Assembly: GCA_031278655.1 (NCBI GenBank)
Contig: JAITJZ010000036.1
Location: 1,614 to 65,613 of the forward strand
DNA length: 64,000 nt
Reading direction: 5' to 3'
Source: Bifidobacteriaceae bacterium
GTDB lineage: Bacteria; Actinomycetota; Actinomycetes; Actinomycetales; WQXJ01
A program made the translations under genes and the position numbers. Shown here one piece after another: positions 34,119-45,330 of this stretch (position 1 is its first letter; each line of letters starts with the position of its first letter). The notes under the pieces are model-generated. The model was given only the letters and a program-made list of their open reading frames with translations, was not told the DNA's origin and made no database searches.

Positions 34119-35375
34119 TTACGGGGCGGGCGGCGCCTCGGTCAAACCGGTCTTCCCGCCATCCGCCGATGCCGCGCGCCGGGCCCGGCGAACAGGCAGC
34201 CAGACAGCGCCGGACAGCGCGACCAGGGCCAATCCCAGCCACAGCCAGGGCACGGTCCAGACGGTCGCCGCCCGCTCGGCCGAAGCGGGCGCCCCCTCGG
34301 CGCCGAGGCCGACGGCGACGGCATCGGCCATGACGGTGGCGGTGGTGCGGAAAAGCGGGAACACCCCCGCGACCGTGACCTGGCGCGAAAGGAAAGAGCC
34401 GGGCAGGATCTCCGGCAGGACCTCGCCGGCGCCGCCGTCGCGCCCGCCCCAGCCGAACGGCCCGGCCACGGCGATGCGCTCGGTCGCCACCAGGCGGGCC
34501 GAGCCGGTGTTGGTCAGGCGGTAGGAGACGGTGATGGTCCCCGAGGCGAACGGGTTGGCCGAGGGCTCGGCCTCGACCCGCAGGTCGGAGATGGTCAGCC
34601 CCGGAGTCAGCTCGCCGGAGACGTTGACGTAGGCGCGCAGCGCCAAGCGCCGGTCCACCTGGACGGCGCCGGCCGAGGCGTCCTCGATCAGCGAGGTCAC
34701 AATCCCGGCGGCGTGGTCGCCGGGGGCGGCGTCGGCCGGGACGGCCCAACGCAGCGGCACCGTCACGGCTCCGGACGGCTCAATGGTGACTTCGACGCTG
34801 GCCTGGCCCGGCCAGGCCTCCGCGCCGGTCGCGGTTTCGCCGCCGCCGGCGGCGCTTGACGCCTCCGGCGCCCATTCGGCCCCGGCCACAGGCGCGCCGA
34901 AGCTGATCCAGGCCCCGGCGTCACTGGGCGGCTCGGCGGCGGGCGCCAGGTCGAGCAGGCCGTCCGGGGTGGTGTAGGCGTCGGCGGCGTACACCTTCAG
35001 GCGCAGCGTCGCGGCCGACCGCGACTCGATCACAATCCCGTCCTCGATCACGCCGCCGGCGGCGGACAGGTAGGAGTAGTTCGGGCGGTTGTTGCCCAGT
35101 GGGCCGTTGGCCGGGCTCAAGGCCCAGCCAACGGCGCCTACTGAATCCCCGGCGCCAACCGTGTCACCGGCTTCGTTCCCGGCGTCAGGGGATGGGGCCG
35201 CTTCGGCCCCTGCCAATCCCTGCGAGCCTTCTGAGAAGGCTGGACCGGCTGTCCCGAGCCGGTCGGAATTGGCGGTTGCGGCCGAGGCGCCACAGGGCAG
35301 TCCGGAATTGGCGGAACCGATCACTGCCGCCAGCGCCACTGCGGTTAGCGCCAAACGGGCGCCTCGGCCACGCAT
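34119..35375 (-). CDS. DUF916-like WxL-interacting protein (signal peptide, C-terminal TM)
   Basis: RPNYSY...G..IED, LKVYAADAYTT.DG..DL, GAWI, VPADAAPGDHAAGIV, VDRRLALR.Y, Y.LTNTG. Confidence 0.78.
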   Translation of the reverse strand: MRGRGARLALTAVALAAVIGSANSGLPCGASAATANSDRLGTAGPAFSEGSQGLAGAEAAPSPDAGNEAGDTVGAGDSVGAVGWALSPANGPLGNNRPNYSYLSAAGGVIEDGIVIESRSAATLRLKVYAADAYTTPDGLLDLAPAAEPPSDAGAWISFGAPVAGAEWAPEASSAAGGGETATGAEAWPGQASVEVTIEPSGAVTVPLRWAVPADAAPGDHAAGIVTSLIEDASAGAVQVDRRLALRAYVNVSGELTPGLTISDLRVEAEPSANPFASGTITVSYRLTNTGSARLVATERIAVAGPFGWGGRDGGAGEVLPEILPGSFLSRQVTVAGVFPLFRTTATVMADAVAVGLGAEGAPASAERAATVWTVPWLWLGLALVALSGAVWLPVRRARRAASADGGKTGLTEAPPAP

Positions 35376-35378
35376 TGA

Positions 35379-37181
35379 TCAGCCCACTCCCGTGATGGTC
35401 AGCAGACCGGTGTAGTTGCCCGCCGCGGTCGAGGCGGGAACCTTCAACTCCAGCGCCGCGGCCACGGTCGCGGCGCCAGTGGTGTGCCCGGCGGCGGCGA
35501 AGGCCAAGGTCCGGGCCGAGCCCAGACCGCCGTCGGCGCCAGCCGTCACAGCCGCTCCGGCCTGCGCCCCGGCCCCGGCGTTGGCCACCACCGGCGTCCA
35601 GCCGAGGTATTGCCCGCCAAAGGCGCCGGCCTCGCCGGAGAAGTCAGACACTTGGCCGCTCAGCGACCATTCCGTCCCAGTTGGACGGGTGTCTGTGACC
35701 TCGATGTTCGGCAGCGCGCCGGTGGCGGCGAAGCCGTCCGAGACCTCGGTGGCGGTGCCCAGCGACACCGCCGCGTTGCCGGTGATCCGCCACGAGAACT
35801 CGCCCGGCTCGGGCTCGTCCGCGCCCTCGGGAATCTCGACATCGACCGGCAGCCCGGGCACAAAGGTCAGCGGCGTGTAGGTCTCGAAGGTCGCTTCGAC
35901 GGCCCCGCCACCCGGATAGGTGTAGATCCCGTAGTTGCCTCCGACCAGGCCTTTCGCCTCAGCGGCGGCATCGGCCGCAGCCTTGGAGACCTCAAATGTG
36001 GCCGTGAACGAGCCGTCTGGCGCCAAGACGATGGCGCCGGCCCCGGCGCCGCCAACGGTCTCGACGAATTCCGACAGCAAAGCCCAGCGGACGGCGGCGG
36101 TGGGACGGGACGCGCTCGTCGCGCCCTCGGACGGGCGCCAGACTTCGGCGAAACGCCCAAAGCCCACGTACACCCCGGAGGACTTGCCCGCCACCGGTCC
36201 GTAGAGGCCGGTGACGGCGCTGGGGTCGAAGCCGGCCCCTTCGACGGTGACGGTGGTGACGCCATCGGCGGACAACTCCACCCGCGAAACCGTCACTGTC
36301 GGCGCCGGCGCGGCCGTCACCTCCCAAGCCACGGCCACCGGATTGGCGATCTTCTTCGGGTCCGCGCCCCCTCCCGACGAGTACCAGTACGAACTCTGGC
36401 CGGTCAACTGCTGGAACTCCACGAACGACTGCGGGAACGAGCCCCAGTTCGCCCCGGTGGTCGACTGACTGACGCCGCTGACCGCGACGCCCAGATACTC
36501 AGGCGCCAACTCGAAGCCGCTGTCCGTCAGGACAATCTCCTCGAAGTCAGCCAGGACGATCGTCTGCGGGGTCACAACCTCCCAGAGGCTCGGGTCATCC
36601 ATGGAGGCGCCATAGCCGGAGCCGGTGGCGGTCAGTTGGCCGGTCCCGTCCGCGTTCACGGTCAGCACCGGGTCCGATGCCGTCCAGTACGTCAGGCCGC
36701 CGTAGTAGACCACGGTGAAGGCGCCCTCCCAGGCGATTTCAGCCGTGCCCGCGTCCAAATCGACGCTGCCCTCGCCGCCGGACAGTTTGACGGCGTTGCC
36801 GGTGGTGGACCCGGCCACCGTGGAGACGGCCGTCCCGGCGGCGTTCAGGCACTTGGTCGCCCAAGTGGGCGCCTCCCAGCCGCCGTCGGCCGTGGGTTTG
36901 ACGATCGACACGTTCCCGGATTGGGCGCTGTAGAAGCCGTCGGCCTCGGTCCACACCCGCGACGAGCCGGTGTTCCCGGCGGCGCCGGCGCTGAGGAAGT
37001 TGCAGCCGCCGAAGTAGGCGCCGCCGCCCGACTCGTCGTTGATCGACCAAGTCAGGGTGACGCCGGCGACGTCAGCCGGCGCGGCCGAGGCGGCGCCGGC
37101 AAAGACCAGGCCGCCGCCAACGGCCAGGGCGCCGGCCGCCAAGAAGGCGGCCCAACGTCCGGGGGTGCGAGCGATTTTCAT
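35379..37181 (-). CDS. Secreted protein: divergent HtaA-like domain + Ig-like domain + C-terminal WxL-like domain
   Basis: RBS GAAAGGA before ATG 37181; signal peptide ending ASA; LTWSIN..SGGGAYFGGCNF...FTVVYYGG...FPQSFVEF..TG..SYWYSSG; C-terminal VTDTR...WSLSGQVSDF...YTGLLTIT. Confidence 0.75.
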   Translation of the reverse strand: MKIARTPGRWAAFLAAGALAVGGGLVFAGAASAAPADVAGVTLTWSINDESGGGAYFGGCNFLSAGAAGNTGSSRVWTEADGFYSAQSGNVSIVKPTADGGWEAPTWATKCLNAAGTAVSTVAGSTTGNAVKLSGGEGSVDLDAGTAEIAWEGAFTVVYYGGLTYWTASDPVLTVNADGTGQLTATGSGYGASMDDPSLWEVVTPQTIVLADFEEIVLTDSGFELAPEYLGVAVSGVSQSTTGANWGSFPQSFVEFQQLTGQSSYWYSSGGGADPKKIANPVAVAWEVTAAPAPTVTVSRVELSADGVTTVTVEGAGFDPSAVTGLYGPVAGKSSGVYVGFGRFAEVWRPSEGATSASRPTAAVRWALLSEFVETVGGAGAGAIVLAPDGSFTATFEVSKAAADAAAEAKGLVGGNYGIYTYPGGGAVEATFETYTPLTFVPGLPVDVEIPEGADEPEPGEFSWRITGNAAVSLGTATEVSDGFAATGALPNIEVTDTRPTGTEWSLSGQVSDFSGEAGAFGGQYLGWTPVVANAGAGAQAGAAVTAGADGGLGSARTLAFAAAGHTTGAATVAAALELKVPASTAAGNYTGLLTITGVG

Positions 37182-39619
37182 GAGACAATTCCTTTCGGTT
37201 GAAGCCGGAACCAGCCGCGACGCCAAGCGATCAAGGCGATGGAGGCTGATACCAGCAGGGTGAGAATCGCGGCGTCTGCCGCGATCCAGGTGCCGGCGGC
37301 CGTACCCCGCACAGGCACCAAGTCTTTGGTGGCGCCGGACAAGACAACGGGCTCGAGGCCGGACCCCCAAGGGTTGGACGCGCCCGTGCCGGCGTCCGCC
37401 CCGCCCTGCGCCCTGGCTTGGATCGCCGCCGCCTTGGCCGCCGCCACACCGCCCAGCCAGCCGCTTGAGGCGCCGCCGGCGCCCGCATTGGTGGTTGTGA
37501 CCGGCGCGTCGATCGCCTTGGCGGCGTCCCAGCTGACATAAACCGGGTCCGGCGGTTTGCGGTGGTCGATCGCCGCCCCCGACGAATACCAATACGAGTG
37601 CAGCCCGGTGCGCCCGTGGAAGTCCACAAACGACTGCGGCCAGGCGCCGGGCGCGCTCGATTCGCCGCCAAGTCTTTGGGTCGGGGCGCCGGCCGGGACC
37701 GCGACCGCCAGGTCGGCGTAGGCGTGGCGCACAACCACGCCGTCGCCGCCAGCGTTCGCCGCCGTGCCCGATGCCGTCGTCCCGTTCGCCAGCACCACGG
37801 CCGTGTCGGGGTGGCGCCCCCAGGCGCCGCCTTCGCGTGGCATGCCGAAGCCGCCGGCGGTGGCGGTCAGTTCGACTTGGCCGCTGGCGCTGATCGTGAT
37901 GACAGGGTCTTCCAGCCAGAAGTAGGTCAGGCCGTCGTAGTAGACCACGGTGAAGGTGGCGTCCCAGGTGATCTGGGCGGCGCCGGTGGCCGTGTCGCGC
38001 CAACCGGTCCCGCCGGTCAGTTTGACCTGGGTGTCGGTGTAGGTCGAAGCCGATTGTTGGGAGGCGTTGTAGCTGACCGGCTGGCCGGCCGGATCCAGGC
38101 AGCGCCGCTCGAATGGGACGCTCTGCCCTTGGGCGTTGACCACTTGGGCGTTGCCGGACTGGGCGTGGTAGAGGTCGCCGCCCCAGTTTCCGGGGTCCCA
38201 TTCGCGCGCCGCGCCGGTGTCGCCGTCCGTCCCCGGACGCCCGGCCATCAGGAAGTTGCAGGCGCCGTAGTAGCTCTTGCCCCTTGTTTCGAGGTTGAAT
38301 CCCCAGGTCAGCTGCGCGTTGACAATGGTCTGGCGGGCGCCATCGCCCGTGTCATTGCCGGAGCCGTCGCCGGAGCCGTTGCCGGAGTCGTCGCGCTGGC
38401 TGGCGCCCGGGATGGTGACGCTGACGGCGATGTCGCCGCCCTCGTCGGGATCGGACCCCCAGGCCGCGCCCGGTCCGCCCGCCCCGACGGCCAGCGTCGC
38501 CAGCGCCAGGCTCAACGCCAGGCGCCGGGCGCGGCGAGTGGCGGCCGCGCCCGCCAGCGAACCGACCAGAACCAGCACAAAGACGATTGCCGCCACCACC
38601 ACGGCGATCTGCCAGGGACCCAGTTGGCGGCCCTCGCCGACGGCGGCGGATTGGCTGGCCTGCTCCGAGGCTTCGACCAGGGACGGGTCACGCCGCACCG
38701 TGAAGGTGGCCTCGGCCGAGGCCCCGGAGGCGGCGCCGGTCAACGTCAGGCTGTGCGTGCCCACCCTCAGGTCCGCCGCCAGCGGGATCGCCGCCGCCAC
38801 CTCCCCGAACTGTCCGGCCGTCAGCGGGCCGACGGCCGCCACGCCATCGTCCAAGACGGCTGTGACCTGCTCGCCGGGCGCGAAACCGCGTCCCGTGAAC
38901 GCCAAAGCGTGCCCGGCCACGGCGGTGGTGGCGTCCACCCCCAGCGTCGCCACCCCGGTGGCCGGGACCACCCCGGCGCCGGCGCCATCGGCGGCCGTCT
39001 CGCCGTCGGCCCCGGCACCGGCCGTGGCGGCGGCGGTGGCGGCGGTCGCGCCGTCGAAGCTGACCGGCGTGAAGGTCTCATTGTTGGCGTTGACAACGCC
39101 ATGCGCCCCAATGGTGATGACGCCGCACTGGGTCTGGCGGCAATCAACCCGCTGGGCCTGGCCGGCGGCGTCCTCGACATCGAAGACCGCCCCCGGAACC
39201 ACCAGGGTGGTCGCCCAGGAGCCGTCAGCGGCGATGACGCCGCCGTTGGCGGAGCTGGCCGTCTCCGAGCCGATGAAGGCGACGAACTTCTCCCGCCCGG
39301 CGTTGTCCTTGGTCTGGGCGTCCGGCACATACAGGAAATCGCGCCCGCCAACGCCCCCGGCCGAGGGCCGCCAGTCGCCCGAGACGGCGCCGAACAGCAC
39401 GTAGATGCCGCCGAAGCCGCCCTCGATGGCCTGGAAGCCGCTGCCTGTCAGCGTCAAAGTGGTGGCGGCCTCGGCGTTGGCCCGGGCCTCGCCGCCCACA
39501 CCGGCCACCGCCACGGACGCGCCCGCCGCCCGCGCCGGGCCGCCAACCCCGCCCACGGCCAGGCCCGCCAGGGCCCCCGCCGCCAGCCCGGCCACCAGCA
39601 GTTGTCTCAAGCGACGCAT
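37178..39619 (-). CDS. Membrane-anchored surface protein: Ig-like domains + internal TM pair + HtaA-like domain + C-terminal TM
   Basis: Signal peptide from ATG 39619; LTGSGF...GIYVLFG...WRPS..DCRQTQCGV; second copy of the LTW.FN...CNFL.AG...YYDG...PQSFVDF...SYWYSSG domain. Confidence 0.72.
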   Translation of the reverse strand: MRRLRQLLVAGLAAGALAGLAVGGVGGPARAAGASVAVAGVGGEARANAEAATTLTLTGSGFQAIEGGFGGIYVLFGAVSGDWRPSAGGVGGRDFLYVPDAQTKDNAGREKFVAFIGSETASSANGGVIAADGSWATTLVVPGAVFDVEDAAGQAQRVDCRQTQCGVITIGAHGVVNANNETFTPVSFDGATAATAAATAGAGADGETAADGAGAGVVPATGVATLGVDATTAVAGHALAFTGRGFAPGEQVTAVLDDGVAAVGPLTAGQFGEVAAAIPLAADLRVGTHSLTLTGAASGASAEATFTVRRDPSLVEASEQASQSAAVGEGRQLGPWQIAVVVAAIVFVLVLVGSLAGAAATRRARRLALSLALATLAVGAGGPGAAWGSDPDEGGDIAVSVTIPGASQRDDSGNGSGDGSGNDTGDGARQTIVNAQLTWGFNLETRGKSYYGACNFLMAGRPGTDGDTGAAREWDPGNWGGDLYHAQSGNAQVVNAQGQSVPFERRCLDPAGQPVSYNASQQSASTYTDTQVKLTGGTGWRDTATGAAQITWDATFTVVYYDGLTYFWLEDPVITISASGQVELTATAGGFGMPREGGAWGRHPDTAVVLANGTTASGTAANAGGDGVVVRHAYADLAVAVPAGAPTQRLGGESSAPGAWPQSFVDFHGRTGLHSYWYSSGAAIDHRKPPDPVYVSWDAAKAIDAPVTTTNAGAGGASSGWLGGVAAAKAAAIQARAQGGADAGTGASNPWGSGLEPVVLSGATKDLVPVRGTAAGTWIAADAAILTLLVSASIALIAWRRGWFRLQPKGIVS

Positions 39620-40404
39620 GGCGTCACCGGCCTTCGGCCGCGGATCGGCGCCACCACCGGCAGCCCGGTGGCCGGGTCCGGCCAAACCCCGATCGGGTGG
39701 CGGTAGAGGTCGCTCAGCCGGTCGGGGGTGGCGATCTCCGCCACCGGGCCGGCGCCGACCAGCCGCCCGTCGCCGATCAGCGCCAGCTGATCGGCCCAGG
39801 CCGCCGCCAACGACAAATCGTGCAGCACCGCCAGCACCGCCCGGCCGCGTCCGGCCTCGCGCCGCGCCAACGACATGACCAACTCCTGATGGCGGATGTC
39901 GAGCGCCGCCGTCGGCTCGTCCAACAGCAGCACATCGGCCTGCTGCGCCAGCGCCCGGGCGAAGGCGACCCTGGCTTTCTCCCCGCTGGACAGGGTTTGG
40001 AAGATCCGCCTGGCCAGGTCGAGCGTGTCGGTGGCGGCGAGCGCGGCGGCGACGGCGGCATCGTCGGCTTCCTCCTGCCCGCCCCGCCACGGCGCCCGCC
40101 CCATCCGGACCACGTCCGCGACCGAGAACGGGAACGACACCTGGGCCTCGGCCAGCATGACGGCCCGGCGGCGGGCCAAAGCCTTGACGCCAATCCCGTG
40201 CAGCGCCCGCCCGTCCAACGTCACCTGGCCGTCGGTGGGCCTGATGTCGCCCGCCAGGACGGCCAGCAGCGTCGACTTGCCGGCGCCGTTCGGCCCGGCC
40301 AGGACCAAGACTTCGCCCGGCCTCACGGCCAGGTCGATCCCGCGCAGAATCTGGGCCTGCCCCACCTGGTAATGGACGCCGTGCGCCGCCAACAGGGCCG
40401 CCAT
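39607..40404 (-). CDS. hmuV: Heme ABC transporter ATP-binding protein
   Basis: GPNGAGKST, LSSGEKARV, LLLDEPTAALD.RHQE, VLHDL. Confidence 0.9.
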   Translation of the reverse strand: MAALLAAHGVHYQVGQAQILRGIDLAVRPGEVLVLAGPNGAGKSTLLAVLAGDIRPTDGQVTLDGRALHGIGVKALARRRAVMLAEAQVSFPFSVADVVRMGRAPWRGGQEEADDAAVAAALAATDTLDLARRIFQTLSSGEKARVAFARALAQQADVLLLDEPTAALDIRHQELVMSLARREAGRGRAVLAVLHDLSLAAAWADQLALIGDGRLVGAGPVAEIATPDRLSDLYRHPIGVWPDPATGLPVVAPIRGRRPVTPCVA

Positions 40405-41615
40405 CAGCCCCACCCCCCGGCCTGGCGGCGCGCCCGGCGCAGCAGGTAGAAGAAGAACGGGCCGCCGACCAGCGAGGTCAGCATGCCGATCGGCAGGTCG
40501 GCGTAGTTGACAGCCGTGCGCGCCACCAGATCGGCGGCCATCAGCAGGACCGCGCCGCCGAGCGCGCTGGCCGGGAGCAGCAGGCCGTGCCCCGGTCCCA
40601 GCGCCATCCGCATCAGGTGGGGCGCCACCAGGCCGACAAAGGCGATGATGCCGCTGAAGGCGACCGCCGCCGCGGTCAGGAAGGCCACCAGGACGATGAC
40701 GCCGATCCGCAACCGCTCAACGTCGACGCCCAGGTGGCGGGCGGAGCGCTCGCCCAAGCTGAGCAGGTCGAGCGGGCGCGCCAGGGTCATGGCCGCGGTC
40801 ACGGCCACGACCACGACCGGCGCCGCCACGGCCACATATTGCCAGCGCGTGCCGTTGAGCGAGCCGAGTTGCCAGAAGATGATCTCCTCGCGGGCGGAGC
40901 TGTCCGCCAGGAAGACGAACAGGGCGATGGCGGCCCCGGCCACGGCGTTGACGGCCACGCCGGTCAGCACCAAGGTCACCACTTCGGTGCGGCCCCCGGC
41001 CCGGCTGAGCCCGTAGACCAGCAGGGTGGAGCCGAGCCCGCCGGCGAAGGCGAGCCCGGCCGTGGACCACGGCCCCAGCGCTCCGGCGCCCAGGGCGATG
41101 CCGCCGCAGGCCGCCGCCGCCGCTCCAGCGCTGACACCGATCACTCCCGGCTCCGCCAATGGGTTGCGGAAGACCCCTTGCATCAACGCCCCGGCCGTCG
41201 CCAGGGCGGCCCCGGCCAGGGCCGCCAGGGCCAGGCGCGGCAGCCGGACCGACATCAGCACGGCCTCCGCGTTGGTCGCCTCCGGCGCCGTCCCCAGCTC
41301 GAGGCCCAATTTGCCGGCCAGCAGGTGAATCACCTGATCCGGCGGGATGTCCATTTGGCCGATCCCAGCCGAAGCGATCACCAGGGCCACGGCGGCCAGC
41401 CCCAGGCCGGTCAGGACGGCGGCGGCGCGTCCCGGGCGGGCGGGCGGCAAGGCCGCCACCGGAGCGCGCCCGGTCGGCCCGGTCGGCCCGGCCGGGCCGG
41501 CCACGTCCGGCGGCGGGGCCACGCCGGGCGCCAGGTCCACGTCCGGCGCCAGGTCCACGCCCGGCGCCAGGTCCACGCCCGGGGTCGCGGCCGCCGGGCG
41601 CGCGGCGGCGGTCAC
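40404..41615 (-). CDS. hmuU: Heme ABC transporter permease (FecCD family)
   Basis: RLPR, FRNPLAEPG, FWQLGSL, A.HLGVD, GGPFF; N-terminal PGVDLA-type repeat x3 at 41522-41582. Confidence 0.9.
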   Translation of the reverse strand: MTAAARPAAATPGVDLAPGVDLAPDVDLAPGVAPPPDVAGPAGPTGPTGRAPVAALPPARPGRAAAVLTGLGLAAVALVIASAGIGQMDIPPDQVIHLLAGKLGLELGTAPEATNAEAVLMSVRLPRLALAALAGAALATAGALMQGVFRNPLAEPGVIGVSAGAAAAACGGIALGAGALGPWSTAGLAFAGGLGSTLLVYGLSRAGGRTEVVTLVLTGVAVNAVAGAAIALFVFLADSSAREEIIFWQLGSLNGTRWQYVAVAAPVVVVAVTAAMTLARPLDLLSLGERSARHLGVDVERLRIGVIVLVAFLTAAAVAFSGIIAFVGLVAPHLMRMALGPGHGLLLPASALGGAVLLMAADLVARTAVNYADLPIGMLTSLVGGPFFFYLLRRARRQAGGWG

Positions 41616-42751
41616 TGGGCCGCCTCCGGCGTGTAGATGGCCGTCGCCAGGGCGTCCAGGACGTCGGCGCTGTTCGGGCCGAAGGCCAAAATCTGGGCGT
41701 CGTCCATGTCGACGAAGCGCCGCTTGGTTCCCGCCGGCGTCGCCGCCACGGCGGGCAGTCTCTCCAGCAGGCCGTCTACCCCGCCCACGGATTCCAGGCC
41801 GCGGGTCATCACCAGGATCAGGTCGGGGCTCATCGCCACCAGCCCCTCATCGGTGACCGGCTGCATCCCATCCCAGCCCACCTCGCTGGCGACATCGATC
41901 CCGCCCAGGGCCGTGATCAGCGAGTCTGTCCCCGATCCGCTCCCGAACAGGTAATAGACGCCGGCGCTGCCCCGCAAGTAGAGGAAGGCCATGCGCAGCC
42001 TGTCCTGGTCTGCGGCCGGAACGGCCTTGGCGATCGCTTCCTTGGCGGCAGCTATCTGGCGCTCGGTCCGCTGGGCCAACTCGGCCCCCTCGTCCGGCAG
42101 GCCGAGCGCCGCCGCCACCTGGCCGATCAGTTCGGCGGCGGTGTCGAGCGAGCGGTGCGAATCGACCACCACCACCGGGATGCCGGCCTCGCGCATCTGC
42201 AGCAGCACATCCCACGGTCCCAGCGACGTGTCGGTGATGATGACCGAGGGCGCCAGTTCCAGGATCGCCTCGGCGCTGAGCGTGTTGCCCGATGGCGTCA
42301 CCCGGGGCAGGTCTTGGATTTCGGCGAAGCCCGATGACGTGTCGCGCCCGATGACGTTGGCGCCCAGTCCCAGCGAGAAGACGATCCGGCTGGTGGTGCC
42401 GTAGATGTCGAGGGCCAGGAGCCGGCTGACGTCGGTGACGGTGACCAGGGTTCCTTGGGCGTCGGTGACCGTGGCCGGCAGGGCCGGCCGCGGGTTGGTG
42501 GCGATGGGCTCGATGGCTGCTTCCGCGACCACCGCCGTCGAGGGGCCGGTGTGGGATTTCGGGTCGGCCAGGGCCGCGGCCGGATCGAACGAGCGGGCGC
42601 CGGCCCCCGGGCCGGCGCCGGGCGTGGCGGCGCCGCAGCCGCCCGTCAGCACCGCCGCCGCGGCCGCCCGGGGCGCCCAGGCCGCGCTGGCCGCCCTTCG
42701 CCCAACCGATCCCAATCGAATCTCCTTCGACGCTCGCCGCACAAGCTCCAT
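41612..42751 (-). CDS. hmuT: Heme ABC transporter substrate-binding lipoprotein
   Basis: Lipobox-like LTGGC; LALDIYGT, FLYLRG.AGVYY, VMTRGLES as in corynebacterial HmuT. Confidence 0.85.
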   Translation of the reverse strand: MELVRRASKEIRLGSVGRRAASAAWAPRAAAAAVLTGGCGAATPGAGPGAGARSFDPAAALADPKSHTGPSTAVVAEAAIEPIATNPRPALPATVTDAQGTLVTVTDVSRLLALDIYGTTSRIVFSLGLGANVIGRDTSSGFAEIQDLPRVTPSGNTLSAEAILELAPSVIITDTSLGPWDVLLQMREAGIPVVVVDSHRSLDTAAELIGQVAAALGLPDEGAELAQRTERQIAAAKEAIAKAVPAADQDRLRMAFLYLRGSAGVYYLFGSGSGTDSLITALGGIDVASEVGWDGMQPVTDEGLVAMSPDLILVMTRGLESVGGVDGLLERLPAVAATPAGTKRRFVDMDDAQILAFGPNSADVLDALATAIYTPEAAQ

Positions 42752-42767
42752 CGGAGAAGAGTGTAAT

Positions 42768-42786
42768 TAAGGCTAGGCTTACCTCG
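42768..42786. promoter_or_regulatory. DtxR/IdeR-like iron box at the hmuT promoter
   Basis: TAAGGCTAGGCTTACCTCG matches TWAGGTWAGSCTWACCTWA at 16 of 19 positions; lies next to a minus-strand TACACT -10 element 8 nt before the ATG. Confidence 0.85.
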
Positions 42787-42913: not shown

Positions 42914-42953
42914 AAACGAAAGGCGGCCCCGGCGCCGAAGCGCCGGGGCCGCC
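42914..42953 (-). terminator. Intrinsic terminator of cydAB
   Basis: GGCGGCCCCGGCGC-TTCG-GCGCCGGGGCCGCC 14-bp stem followed by TTTCGTTT on the minus strand. Confidence 0.9.
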
Positions 42954-42956
42954 CGA

Positions 42957-43010
42957 TGGCTAAATCTTGGCCGAGTGGCCAGATCTTCGCCGTTGGCTAG
43001 ATCTTGGCCG
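42957..43010. repeat. Three near-palindromic 17-bp copies; the last contains the cydB stop
   Basis: TGGCTAAATCTTGGCCG / TGGCCAGATCTTCGCCG / TGGCTAGATCTTGGCCG. Confidence 0.85.
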
Positions 43011-45330
43011 GATCCAGACCCGACTCAGCCGGAATCCGCTCAGCGCTGATGCGCCTGCGGAAGACCCAAATCGACCAAGCCTGGTAGGCCAACACGATCG
43101 GCACCAAGCAGATGGCCACAATGGTCATCAACTGCAGTGTCTTCTCGCTGGAAGCCGCCGCGTGGATCGGCTGACCGGTGATGACAGCACTGCCATCGTC
43201 CGCCCACTCCTCCAGCGGGACGAACGCGGCCAACGGCACCACGGCATCGTCCTTGTCTGTGACCATGCCGAGCGCGTGCAAAGCCGCCAACGCGCCGTTC
43301 GCGTTCTGGACCCGGCCGTTCAGGTTCGCCAAGCCAGAATCGTTGGGCCATGCCTCGCCGTTGGCGATCTTTGTCAGATCCATGCCGTCGACGAACTTCG
43401 GCGTCTTGGGATCATCGGCCACGGATTGCAGAACCACGACCACATCCCCCAAGACCGCCTGAACCGAACCGGCCACCGCGCCCAGCACGCCCTCGACCGT
43501 GGTCGGGAGCTGATCGATCGCCGCTTGGACGGTCTTTTCGACTTCCGCCACAACCGTCGCCGCCGGCAACCCACCGATGGTGGAACTGCCGGAGACGATG
43601 TCTGCGACCACGGCGCCAACAGTGGCGTCATCGGCGGGCAAGCCATTGCGGGCCAAGGTGATCTTGACAGTGGTGATGACGTCGCCGGCGGGAATGACCC
43701 CAGCCGCCACCGTCAACGAGCCATTGGCGATCCCCGGCACGTCCGCCAGCACCGCCGCCGTCAAGGCCTTGGCTTCCTCGCCGGCCTCGGCCTGGACATC
43801 GGCGTAGGTCAGCGCGCCGCTCTGGAGCGCCGCGCCCACCCGGGCGAAGGCCGCGGTGACCACCAACTGAACCTGCTCTTGGTCAATGGCGCCAGCGGCC
43901 GGGAACGTGCCGGCCAAGGAGTCGGCCAAGACCTTGGCGGTCAAGGCGGTGGCCGCCTCGCCCGGCGCGCCTTGGACGTCGGCCGGGTTCAGGCTGCCGT
44001 CGCCAACGGCGCCGGCCACCCGCTCGAACGTCTTGTCGACCACGAGTTTGACATCAGCCACGGGCAGCAACCCGGCTGGCCAGTACTCACTCGTGACGAT
44101 GGCCGTCCGGGCGCCGCTCTGAACATCTTCCGAAAGCAGATCGGTGACGATCAGCGGTGTCAGCGTCTCAGCCGTGTACGGGCTGGGATCGGCTTGCAAA
44201 TCCGCCGCCGCGGTCTTCTCCACTTCGGCGAAGGTCAGCGCCACCACGTCGTTGACATTCAGGCCAGCGCCGTCGTTGTCGGTTCCCAGGACGATCCGTC
44301 CAACGATCGGATCGGAAATCGCGTCGCCCTTCAGCGCCACATTCGACCCGTTGATGACGTTCGGGAACAGCGTGGCGAAGATGGTCACGACGGCCGCCAG
44401 CAGCGCCACCGTCATCGAGGTGAAGGCGAGGCCGAACTTCCTGGCCAGAGTCGTCAGGACGACCACGATCAAGCCCAGCGCCGCCACCGCGATGGCGATC
44501 CAGACCAAAGCCGTCGGGTGGTTGCCGCCCGCGAACTTCAGGCCCAGCCACACCACCCAGACGGCGGCGATGACCGTGGCCACGATCGACAGCTTGGGCG
44601 CCAGCGACTCGGAGCGCTGGCGGACCTCGCCGTCAGTCTTGAGCGACAAGAAGATGGCGCCGTGGGCCATGAACAAGGCCGCCGTGGTCAAACCGCCCAG
44701 GAGCAGGAAGCCCTGGTGGGCGAAGACCAGATCGAAGAAGGTGCCGTTGTAGACAATCTTCGACGGCCCGAGCTGCGTCGGGTCGACGGCCGCTTTGACG
44801 CCGGCGACCAGGTTGGCGAAGGCCACGCCCCACAGGATCGCGGGAATCCACGAACCCAGGATGATGCACCAATCCCAGAGCTTGCGCCAGCCGTCACCGT
44901 TGATCTTGCCGCGGTACTCGAAGGCCACGGCGCGGATGATCAGACCGACCAGAATCAGGAACAGCGGCAGATAAGCCGCGCTGAACAGGGTCGCATACCA
45001 TTCGGGGAAGGCCGCGAAGGTGGCGCCACCAGCTGTCAGCACCCAGACCTCGTTGCCGTCCCAGAGCGGGCCGATGGTCGAGAGCATCGCCCGGCGTTCG
45101 CTGTCCTTCTTGCCGATGATCGGCAACAACATGCCAACGCCGAAGTCGAAGCCTTCGAGCACCAGATAACCGGTCCACAGGACCGCGATCAAAGAGAACC
45201 ACAACAACTCCAGCCCGGTCGGCGCGGTCACCAGACGGTGCAGCAGCGAAACCAAGGCATTGGCGGTGGCTTCGGTCCCTGCCGGGTCGACCTCGGCTGC
45301 CGGAGCGAGAGCGAGAATGCTAGTCAACAT
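42997..45330 (-). CDS. cydB: Cytochrome bd oxidase subunit II with an insertion of about 390 aa
   Basis: LEGFDFGVG, IGPLWDGNEVW, AFPEWYA, final PIVLAYQAWSIWVFRRRI helix; RBS AAGGAG. Confidence 0.95.
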   Translation of the reverse strand: MLTSILALAPAAEVDPAGTEATANALVSLLHRLVTAPTGLELLWFSLIAVLWTGYLVLEGFDFGVGMLLPIIGKKDSERRAMLSTIGPLWDGNEVWVLTAGGATFAAFPEWYATLFSAAYLPLFLILVGLIIRAVAFEYRGKINGDGWRKLWDWCIILGSWIPAILWGVAFANLVAGVKAAVDPTQLGPSKIVYNGTFFDLVFAHQGFLLLGGLTTAALFMAHGAIFLSLKTDGEVRQRSESLAPKLSIVATVIAAVWVVWLGLKFAGGNHPTALVWIAIAVAALGLIVVVLTTLARKFGLAFTSMTVALLAAVVTIFATLFPNVINGSNVALKGDAISDPIVGRIVLGTDNDGAGLNVNDVVALTFAEVEKTAAADLQADPSPYTAETLTPLIVTDLLSEDVQSGARTAIVTSEYWPAGLLPVADVKLVVDKTFERVAGAVGDGSLNPADVQGAPGEAATALTAKVLADSLAGTFPAAGAIDQEQVQLVVTAAFARVGAALQSGALTYADVQAEAGEEAKALTAAVLADVPGIANGSLTVAAGVIPAGDVITTVKITLARNGLPADDATVGAVVADIVSGSSTIGGLPAATVVAEVEKTVQAAIDQLPTTVEGVLGAVAGSVQAVLGDVVVVLQSVADDPKTPKFVDGMDLTKIANGEAWPNDSGLANLNGRVQNANGALAALHALGMVTDKDDAVVPLAAFVPLEEWADDGSAVITGQPIHAAASSEKTLQLMTIVAICLVPIVLAYQAWSIWVFRRRISAERIPAESGLDPAKI

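Follow-up and report, generated by a model that had tools for sequence, protein, structure and literature searches.

Six genes behind an iron box

The window analyzed here—a 64,000-nt stretch of contig JAITJZ010000036.1 from the Bifidobacteriaceae bacterium assembly GCA_031278655.1—contains a cluster of six closely packed, co-oriented open reading frames (ORFs) that resembles a heme-uptake operon. The leading three encode a putative ATP-binding cassette (ABC) importer: hmuT (41612–42751), hmuU (40404–41615), and hmuV (39607–40413). They are followed by three genes for putative surface proteins, namely gene 4 (37178–39619; 813 amino acids), gene 5 (35379–37181; 600 amino acids), and gene 6 (34119–35375; 418 amino acids). 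All six genes, and the features described within them, lie on the minus strand, in a region with a G+C content of ~72%. Successive genes from hmuT to gene 5 overlap by 4, 10, 13, and 4 nt, and a gap of 3 nt separates gene 5 from gene 6. A preliminary description of this DNA had claimed six co-oriented, overlapping or abutting genes behind an iron box; we found the genes and the box at the positions it gave.

HmuT is a heme-type substrate-binding protein (PF01497) and, by the lipobox rule, a probable lipoprotein (LTGGC). It matches Corynebacterium glutamicum HmuT (CgHmuT; PDB 5az3) at E 1.1e-66, and its Tyr258-x-Arg260 is aligned to the pair Tyr240/Arg242, which is named along with His141 among the heme ligands of CgHmuT (PMC4926363, in part). 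The Tyr and Arg are kept in 57/57 HmuTs from the clusters introduced below, the window's copy included, and the His in 55 of them; the HmuT family of these clusters looks like a true heme binder. HmuU is a FecCD-type permease (PF01032, E 1.4e-91), and the ABC ATPase HmuV scores 284.8 bits against the NCBIfam heme ABC ATPase equivalog NF010068, above its cut-off of 261. That HmuT, HmuU, and HmuV make up a heme-type importer, as had been proposed, is thus shown by homology.

The iron box, of the DtxR/IdeR type, is a 19-bp site at 42768–42786, 16 nt upstream of the hmuT ATG. It agrees at 16 of 19 positions with TWAGGTWAGSCTWACCTWA, which we take to be the DtxR/IdeR consensus and used to score all boxes, and it is the sole site in the 64-kb window with a score of at least 15/19. 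The 2.73-Mb source genome holds four sites that reach 16/19, the operon box among them (a shuffled genome holds none), and encodes two DtxR-family repressors. In 45 of 56 related loci, the 500 nt upstream of hmuT include a box of at least 15/19, compared with 26 of 710 random 530-nt windows from the same loci, which may themselves include true sites. A sigma-70 pattern scan found no promoter and is uninformative at this G+C.

How general is this gene arrangement? A scan of one genome per species gave 72 loci, which we annotated with the window's proteins by phmmer. The genes hmuTUV are present in 55 of them, the domain of gX (one of two proteins joined in gene 4) in 59, where it follows hmuV, and the fusion of a receptor-like domain to a WxL-like domain that characterizes gene 5 in 47. 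In 45 of these 47 loci the fusion is followed directly by a gene 6 homologue, and one of the exceptions runs off its contig. All parts occur together in 38 of the 72 loci, many of the remainder being short contigs. The complete clusters belong to Micrococcales (29), Kitasatosporales (4), Propionibacteriales (2), genomes labeled Bifidobacteriales (2), and one unplaced genome, and cover 15 or more named genera, Streptomyces, Microbacterium, Cellulomonas, and Arthrobacter among them. In 55 of 56 related loci, two separate genes stand in place of gene 4, so the usual cluster has seven genes. The cluster is conserved and carries iron boxes, with the number of genes corrected from six to seven for the usual form.

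Some loci show the same skeleton with a different receptor. In four further genomes (L119, L120, L121, and L122) the WxL-like anchor is joined to a canonical HtaA domain, and in L120 and L122 the order is hmuTUV, gX, an HtaA–WxL fusion, a fusion of the divergent domain to WxL, and a DUF916-family gene. Canonical CR domains are found in only 11 of the 72 loci. Because canonical PF04213 is absent from the other 61, the divergent domain is the only CR-type candidate in most clusters. In a sample of 151 genomes from the class, 10 have the divergent domain (E<=1e-10), 34 the WxL-like domain (E<=1e-6), and 29 a match above the cut-off to PF06030, the Pfam family of DUF916.

The operon is flanked upstream by cydAB and downstream by rplU, rpmA, obg, and proB. 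The cydB stop is separated from the iron box by a strong terminator-like hairpin (42921–42954, minus strand) with a stem of 15 pairs, 14 of them G-C, and a T-rich tail; it marks the upstream limit of the operon unit. CydB itself (42997–45330) has an insert of ~400 residues (43111–44337, minus strand), which falls between positions 265 and 266 of the Pfam profile, matches no Pfam family, and has a lower G+C of 0.65–0.67; a shorter form of it occurs in a related metagenome-assembled genome (MAG; locus L008). Other iron-box-like sites in the source genome precede an ECF-type transporter (C86:4655), a Peripla_BP_2/FecCD transporter (C39:28503, 15/19), and a 425-residue ORF without assigned function (C38:181), or lie between a LacI regulator and a sugar-binding protein (C101:14617).

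A shared surface domain and the fusion in gene 4

Genes 4 and 5 share a domain of ~260 amino acids, with 37% identity over 283 columns (BLASTP, E 1e-38). Copy 1 (37526–38317; residues 435–698 of gene 4) is of the membrane-anchored type, its nearest relatives being the gY-type copies of related MAGs, and copy 2 (36321–37061) covers residues 41–287 of gene 5. The motifs from which a domain common to two surface proteins had been proposed lie within it.

What kind of domain is this? Searched against the PDB as single sequences, genes 4 and 5 returned nothing at E<=1; a full-length profile (A1) gave no match at E<=10, and NCBIfam gave none for genes 4–6. The wider family points to HtaA. PF04213 (HtaA) is matched inside the domain in 5 of 10 scanned homologues, at 27.1–33.1 bits, and in 17 of 54 gene 5 orthologues at E<=0.01. 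When a profile of 81 domain sequences (A2) was aligned by hhalign to one of 27 canonical HtaA domains from other actinomycete genomes (A3), the match reached 96.3% and E 1.6e-9, placing domain positions 97–191 on HtaA 33–127. Residues 35–297 of an ESM Atlas model of gene 5 (pLDDT 0.82) give TM-scores of 0.52–0.66 to HtaA clusters. The shared domain is on this evidence probably a divergent HtaA/CR-like β-sandwich, in line with the HtaA-like domain of the preliminary description.

The conserved residues are of interest for a Tyr-based heme site. Tyr160 is aligned to the His of the canonical G-H helper motif in the β6–β7 loop and is invariant in 166/166 domain copies, as is Tyr265. A helper Tyr instead of His is known from ChtA (PMC12494546, in part); Tyr160 is thus the ChtA-like Tyr variant. 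In CR domains the iron-coordinating Tyr stands on helix α-1 (Y49/Y361/Y129; same source, in part), and a low-mact extension of the hhalign match gave low-confidence N- and C-terminal columns, which we did not use for placing this axial Tyr. Each context class retains Cys60 as often as Cys111, an indication that the two form a disulfide. In a tree of the 166 copies, WxL-linked and membrane-anchored types cluster (12 changes, a number as low as which was reached in 0 of 500 shuffles) and do not fall into two clean clades.

Gene 4 is an in-frame fusion of gX and gY. Usually, gX consists of a signal peptide, a domain that we call g4N, an immunoglobulin (Ig)-like domain, a transmembrane helix, and a cytoplasmic tail, and gY of a signal peptide, the shared domain, and a C-terminal transmembrane helix. 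The window's fusion lacks the gX tail and the gY start. Comparison with loci L007, L008, L009, and L013 shows that at the junction (38456–38614; residues 336–388) the transmembrane helix of gX is followed by TRRARR and then by the hydrophobic, signal-peptide-like core of gY; this segment is predicted to form a transmembrane hairpin that leaves both gene 4 domains outside. The protein ends in a further transmembrane anchor (37223–37288), a hydrophobic segment followed by RRGW, and a simple hydropathy scan finds a transmembrane-like segment near the C terminus of 44 of 56 gY orthologues. The fusion is lineage-specific. An assembly slip was considered as its origin and rejected: an independent contig from a public run (X1), possibly of the same sample as the source genome, spans 34277–40063 without a gap.

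The g4N domain of gX (39056–39466; gene 4 residues 52–188) is extracellular, unnamed, and very conserved. It has no Pfam or NCBIfam match, and its 615 relatives at E<=1e-10 include no Pfam domain among the 120 listed; the names in the family are only "hypothetical." At least 95% conservation over 60 sequences is seen at 48 positions, including Y73, W83, Y97, C160, C165, and H173, and a transmembrane segment follows the domain in 59/59 cases by the same type of scan. We regard gX as a candidate heme-handling protein.

The WxL-like domain and its DUF916-family partner

Gene 5 encodes a signal peptide, the HtaA/CR-like domain, an Ig-like middle domain, and a WxL-like C-terminal domain. The middle domain (35862–36296; residues 296–440) is a degenerate paralogue of g4N (BLASTP E 5e-4 to gene 4 residues 45–188), gives weak TIG/neocarzinostatin-like signals, and is missing from orthologues of ~465 amino acids. 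Just before the WxL-like domain stands a β-strand-like segment, LPVDVEIPE (35826–35852), in which I/V residues alternate and V448 and P451 are kept in 54/54 orthologues. The same type of segment forms the mature N terminus of P0272, a small WxL-like paralogue elsewhere in the source genome (locus L001), where it reads GDVDVTVEI and resembles a pilin donor strand. The gene 5 segment fits a donor strand, which is only a reading of the sequence.

The WxL-like domain (35382–35804; residues 460–600) belongs to a large family. A profile of 50 sequences of this region (A4) matched 2272 cluster representatives at E<=1e-3, and in all 150 that were listed, ranging in length from 124 to 1500 amino acids, the match was C-terminal. 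This agrees with WxL domains, which occupy the final 120–190 residues of secreted proteins whose N-terminal part varies. PF13731, the Pfam WxL family, is matched at E<=0.01 in 3 of 54 gene 5 orthologues and in 11 of the lower-ranked 75 of the 150 listed representatives (P0196–P0270), in the latter always below the cut-off of 25 bits. Above the cut-off it occurs in 11 of the 151 sampled genomes. Profile A4 matches the 11 Pfam-passing actinobacterial WxL ORFs of these genomes, one at E 0.008 and the other 10 with values from 1.6e-40 to 1.9e-8 (E-values for a small ORF set); the C-terminal domain of gene 5 is on this account to be classed as a divergent WxL-family member. The WxL-like C terminus claimed earlier thus stands by way of its family, the window's copy being itself subthreshold.

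The proteins displayed by this family are diverse. PF04213 is found in 14 of the 75 WxL-like proteins scanned, several of the domains being canonical, and other payloads include Big_3_5, PBP_like_2, alkaline phosphatase, GDPD, glycosidase, propeller, arabinofuranosidase, CBM96, and α/β hydrolase domains. This range, with many payloads of a nutrient-scavenging kind, suggests that the actinobacterial WxL-like domain is a general display module.

The partner is gene 6, with a signal peptide and a C-terminal transmembrane helix (WLWLGLALVALSGAVWL, followed by RRARR) that recurs across the family alignment (A5). Two source-genome paralogues that pass PF06030 are matched by gene 6 at phmmer E 1.2e-33 and 8.9e-27; PF06030 is matched in 45 of 46 gene 6 family members at E<=0.01, the exception being the window's copy, which has an insertion of ~35 residues. 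NCBI names orthologues "DUF916 domain-containing" or "WxL protein peptidoglycan domain-containing protein." By family membership, gene 6 can be assigned to the DUF916 (WxLIP_PGBD) family, in line with the DUF916-like partner described before. The pairing is strict in the source genome, where each of the four WxL-like genes adjoins a DUF916-like gene; three of these pairs, with small WxL-like genes, lie elsewhere (L001 on C140, L002 on C161, and L003 on C164).

Two features of the gene 6 family may be recorded here. Its most conserved stretch is VQVDRRLALRAYVNVSG (residues 238–254; 34614–34664), with R243 invariant, L244, R247, V252, and G254 conserved at 90% or more, and alternating hydrophobic residues; it is a candidate chaperone-type donor strand. 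In five Pseudoclavibacter loci (L047, L050, L056, L057, and L060), gene 6 orthologues have a long C-terminal extension that closes with L-x-S-T-G, then hydrophobic residues, then RRRGR, an arrangement resembling a sortase sorting signal.

A putative heme relay and its alternatives

How might these parts work together? The explanation that we favor, and hold to be reasonably probable, is an iron-repressed heme-uptake operon in which a short relay of surface proteins serves the HmuTUV importer; our estimate covers the whole of this explanation, repression by iron included. Gene 6 would hold the WxL-like domain of gene 5 non-covalently, probably, if enterococcal ElrE/WxLIP is a guide, by way of a β-strand inserted into an Ig-like fold that is incomplete; enterococcal DUF916/DUF3324 proteins bind WxL domains by strand insertion (PMC10599100, in part). 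The receptor domain of gene 5 would be placed on its Ig-like stalk at or above the membrane, higher than the membrane-anchored copy and HmuT, and would capture hemin or a heme-carrying protein. Heme would then pass to the membrane-anchored copy, the gX domain, or both, and from there to HmuT and HmuUV. Hemin binding by the shared domain and contact between the WxL-like domain and the DUF916-family protein are what we infer from sequence.

The use of the imported heme may be read from the source genome (92.65% complete), in which hemB, hemC, hemE, chdC, an HmuO-type heme oxygenase, and catalase were not found, and a ferrochelatase homologue, two ABM proteins, and cydAB were. This suggests heme auxotrophy with heme-dependent respiration. 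Because heme genes are missing and cydAB is adjacent, imported heme may serve largely as a cofactor of cytochrome bd, besides being an iron source.

A number of observations weigh against this explanation. In the importer, Asn156 of HmuT stands at the CgHmuT His141 position (42275–42292), and the second (His) ligand is apparently lost in the window's copy. Co-transcription of the six genes is deduced from gene spacing alone. As to the shared domain, PF04213 finds no match in gene 4 or gene 5 at E<=0.1 (the cut-off is 24 bits), the hhalign match is confined to the core sandwich and does not take in the hemin-holding part of CR domains, and at the candidate axial position (Y56 in gene 5) 33 of 81 sequences have Y and 41 have F; this position varies in every context class, in a region where the alignment to CR domains has low confidence. 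The Tyr-rich HtaA-like domain of the preliminary description thus has invariant Tyr160 and Tyr265 but not the classical axial Tyr as a conserved feature. The anchor is also divergent. Against PF13731, the C-terminal ~155 residues of gene 5 reach 16.6 bits, below its cut-off, and the Trp-x-Leu motifs are degenerate (LGWTP proximal, YTGLLTITGVG distal): across the family the proximal motif keeps invariant L, G, W, and P, and the distal one keeps Y-xxx-L-T without its Trp, compared with a definition of two Trp-x-Leu motifs, the distal being YXXX(L/I/V)TWXLXXXP (PMC5817068). Gene 6 itself has no PF06030 match, and PF11797 (DUF3324, the second WxLIP domain) occurs in 0 of 46 gene 6 family members and in 0 of the 151 sampled genomes. 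Finally, in a genome that is 92.65% complete, missing heme genes are no proof of auxotrophy.

An alternative is that the shared domain is not a hemin binder. It may instead be a receptor for heme-carrying proteins or another large ligand, like HbpA of Corynebacterium diphtheriae, with hemin freed from the bound protein being taken by the gX domain or by HmuT itself. The best solved relative of profile A2 is indeed HbpA (9bch_A; E 8.8e-4, 22.1 bits, three collinear segments), ahead of the CR domain of CgHtaA (6jsa_A; E 0.027), and excerpts of PMC11725911 describe HbpA as a CR-like receptor that has no axial Tyr, possesses a disulfide and extra insertions, and binds holo-hemoglobin and not hemin. 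The window's domain has a similar appearance—~260 residues against ~165 in a CR domain, a variable axial-Tyr position, and a conserved Cys pair—and invariant residues of gX include Tyr, His, and Cys. The profile match, however, has a modest E-value, and neither the 61 clusters without canonical CR domains nor the source genome (no PF04213 match at E<=10) would offer a canonical CR domain to receive the hemin. Canonical HtaA and the divergent domain, moreover, fill the same WxL-anchored slot, and two Tyr residues invariant in every copy are what a Tyr-based heme site would lead one to expect. We consider an HbpA-like receptor unlikely.

The anchoring module raises a question of its own. A 2026 preprint, available in part, no longer takes WxL/DUF916 for a simple complex bound to the wall and describes it as a chaperone-pilin system of the donor-strand type, in which WxL pilins are joined by donor-strand exchange with the help of a membrane-anchored DUF916/DUF3324 chaperone. 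The earlier proposal that a WxL complex anchors the receptor to the wall thus retains its parts, the WxL-like domain and the DUF916-family protein, and the simple wall complex becomes questionable as its model. Applied to the window, gene 6 would prime gene 5, the strand before the WxL-like domain would be the donor strand, and gene 5 would polymerize, or join small WxL-like fibers encoded elsewhere, carrying heme receptors. The alternating strand with its invariant V448 and P451 would suit this, as would its use as the mature N terminus of P0272 next to its own DUF916-like gene, the three further small WxL-like pairs in the source genome, and the three loci (L071, L120, and L122) that have two WxL-like genes ahead of one DUF916-like gene. 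Yet the operon contains a single WxL-like gene, with no small one and no LPxTG anchor. It consequently fails both published definitions, that of a WxL cluster as a minimum of one WxLIP together with two WxL proteins (PMC10599100, in part) and that of an Elr-type operon as a chaperone and a small pilin within 10 kb (preprint, in part). An internal donor strand behind an N-terminal payload has no precedent in the literature consulted, and the strand may be merely the first strand of the WxL-like domain. A chaperone-subunit role in place of a static tether is accordingly, in our estimation, also rather improbable. Most improbable is a reading in which the three distal genes merely neighbor hmuTUV, serve surface functions or adhesion in general, and play no part in taking up heme. 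WxL-like domains do carry many unrelated payloads (75 of the 150 listed representatives were scanned), but the linkage to hmuTUV extends across four orders, the genes overlap tightly behind a single iron box, and homology links the shared domain to CR/HbpA domains, for which no setting other than heme systems is known.

The proposed iron-repressed heme relay invites comparison with systems that are already characterized. It resembles HtaA/HtaB/ChtA–HmuTUV of Corynebacterium (PDB 8SMU and 6JSA) in its predicted DtxR-type iron regulation, in an HmuTUV importer whose HmuT site has Tyr/Arg and usually His, in surface proteins with a probable CR-type β-sandwich, some with a C-terminal transmembrane anchor, and, for ChtA, in the Tyr at the helper position. 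It differs in that its domain is ~100 residues longer, has a conserved Cys pair and no conserved α-1 axial Tyr, and fails the PF04213 cut-off in the window's copies; one receptor is tethered by a WxL-like domain and a DUF916-family partner, and there is an extra protein, gX. C. diphtheriae HbpA (9BCH/9BCJ) is likewise CR-like, larger than a CR domain, and membrane-anchored (PMC11725911, in part), but its similarity to the window's domain is weak. HbpA is, moreover, described only in C. diphtheriae strains in the accessible part of the literature, whereas the window's family is found in soil and gut Actinomycetota and is often the sole CR-type domain beside hmuTUV. With the WxL/WxLIP clusters of Lactobacillales and Bacillales, to which study of this attachment module has so far been confined and which include the elr pilus operon of Enterococcus faecalis, the locus shares a variable N-terminal payload on a C-terminal WxL-type domain and a strictly paired, adjoining DUF916-family protein with a C-terminal transmembrane helix. 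It departs from them in its Actinomycetota host, in lacking strict Trp-x-Leu motifs, a detectable DUF3324/HBD, a small pilin, and LPxTG, in its single WxL-like gene, and in a payload that belongs to a heme system and not to an adhesin. The Isd/NEAT systems of Staphylococcus and Bacillus also have several surface receptors at different depths, from which heme moves on to a lipoprotein and an ABC permease (sources seen in part), but the NEAT fold is unrelated and Isd receptors are covalently linked to the wall by sortase; the likeness is functional and implies no membership.

Has this combination been described before? A literature search found no paper on WxL with HtaA, in keeping with the statement in the preliminary description that no characterized system combines these parts; supplements of the preprint and of PMC10599100 (e.g., Table S5) may list actinobacterial hits. 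Among the matches listed for wxl and heme, none treats both together, and PMC5341603 treats them separately. Heme uptake is not dealt with in PMC5817068 (on the WxL domain and Actinobacteria) or PMC12537917 (on DUF916 and Streptomyces), and the titles or abstract openings of the other papers on these two subjects give no pointer to it. Streptomyces htaA–hmuTUV homologues are mentioned as DmdR1 targets (PMC12161575, in part). The cluster is thus a conserved, uncharacterized combination of parts.

A further possibility, which we hold to be less likely than not, is that Actinomycetota possess their own branch of WxL/DUF916 donor-strand display, missed by threshold-based surveys and used for nutrient capture rather than adhesion. 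According to the parts of the preprint available, WxL operons were detected only in Bacillota, by Pfam cut-offs for PGBD, HBD, and WxL, with "a small Actinomycetota satellite" among the chaperones; the window's proteins fall below the cut-offs used in that census. In such a branch, gene 6 would prime a receptor that has both a WxL-like acceptor domain and a donor strand, and the receptors would be strung into or onto a surface fiber from which heme reaches HmuTUV.

What has been worked out of heme uptake in Actinomycetota comes almost entirely from Corynebacterium, and the cluster type described here differs in its receptor domain, in how the receptor is held, and in having an unnamed conserved family, gX. 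The preprint confines WxL/DUF916 to Bacillota; the actinomycete genomes examined here show WxL-like and PF06030 domains in tight pairing, and the payloads of the actinobacterial WxL-like proteins point to the scavenging of nutrients—heme, phosphate, and glycans. Cultivable carriers of the cluster exist, hence these ideas are directly testable. If they are true, chaperone-guided donor-strand assembly would extend beyond Bacillota, and the cluster would represent a new means by which Gram-positive envelopes position heme receptors.

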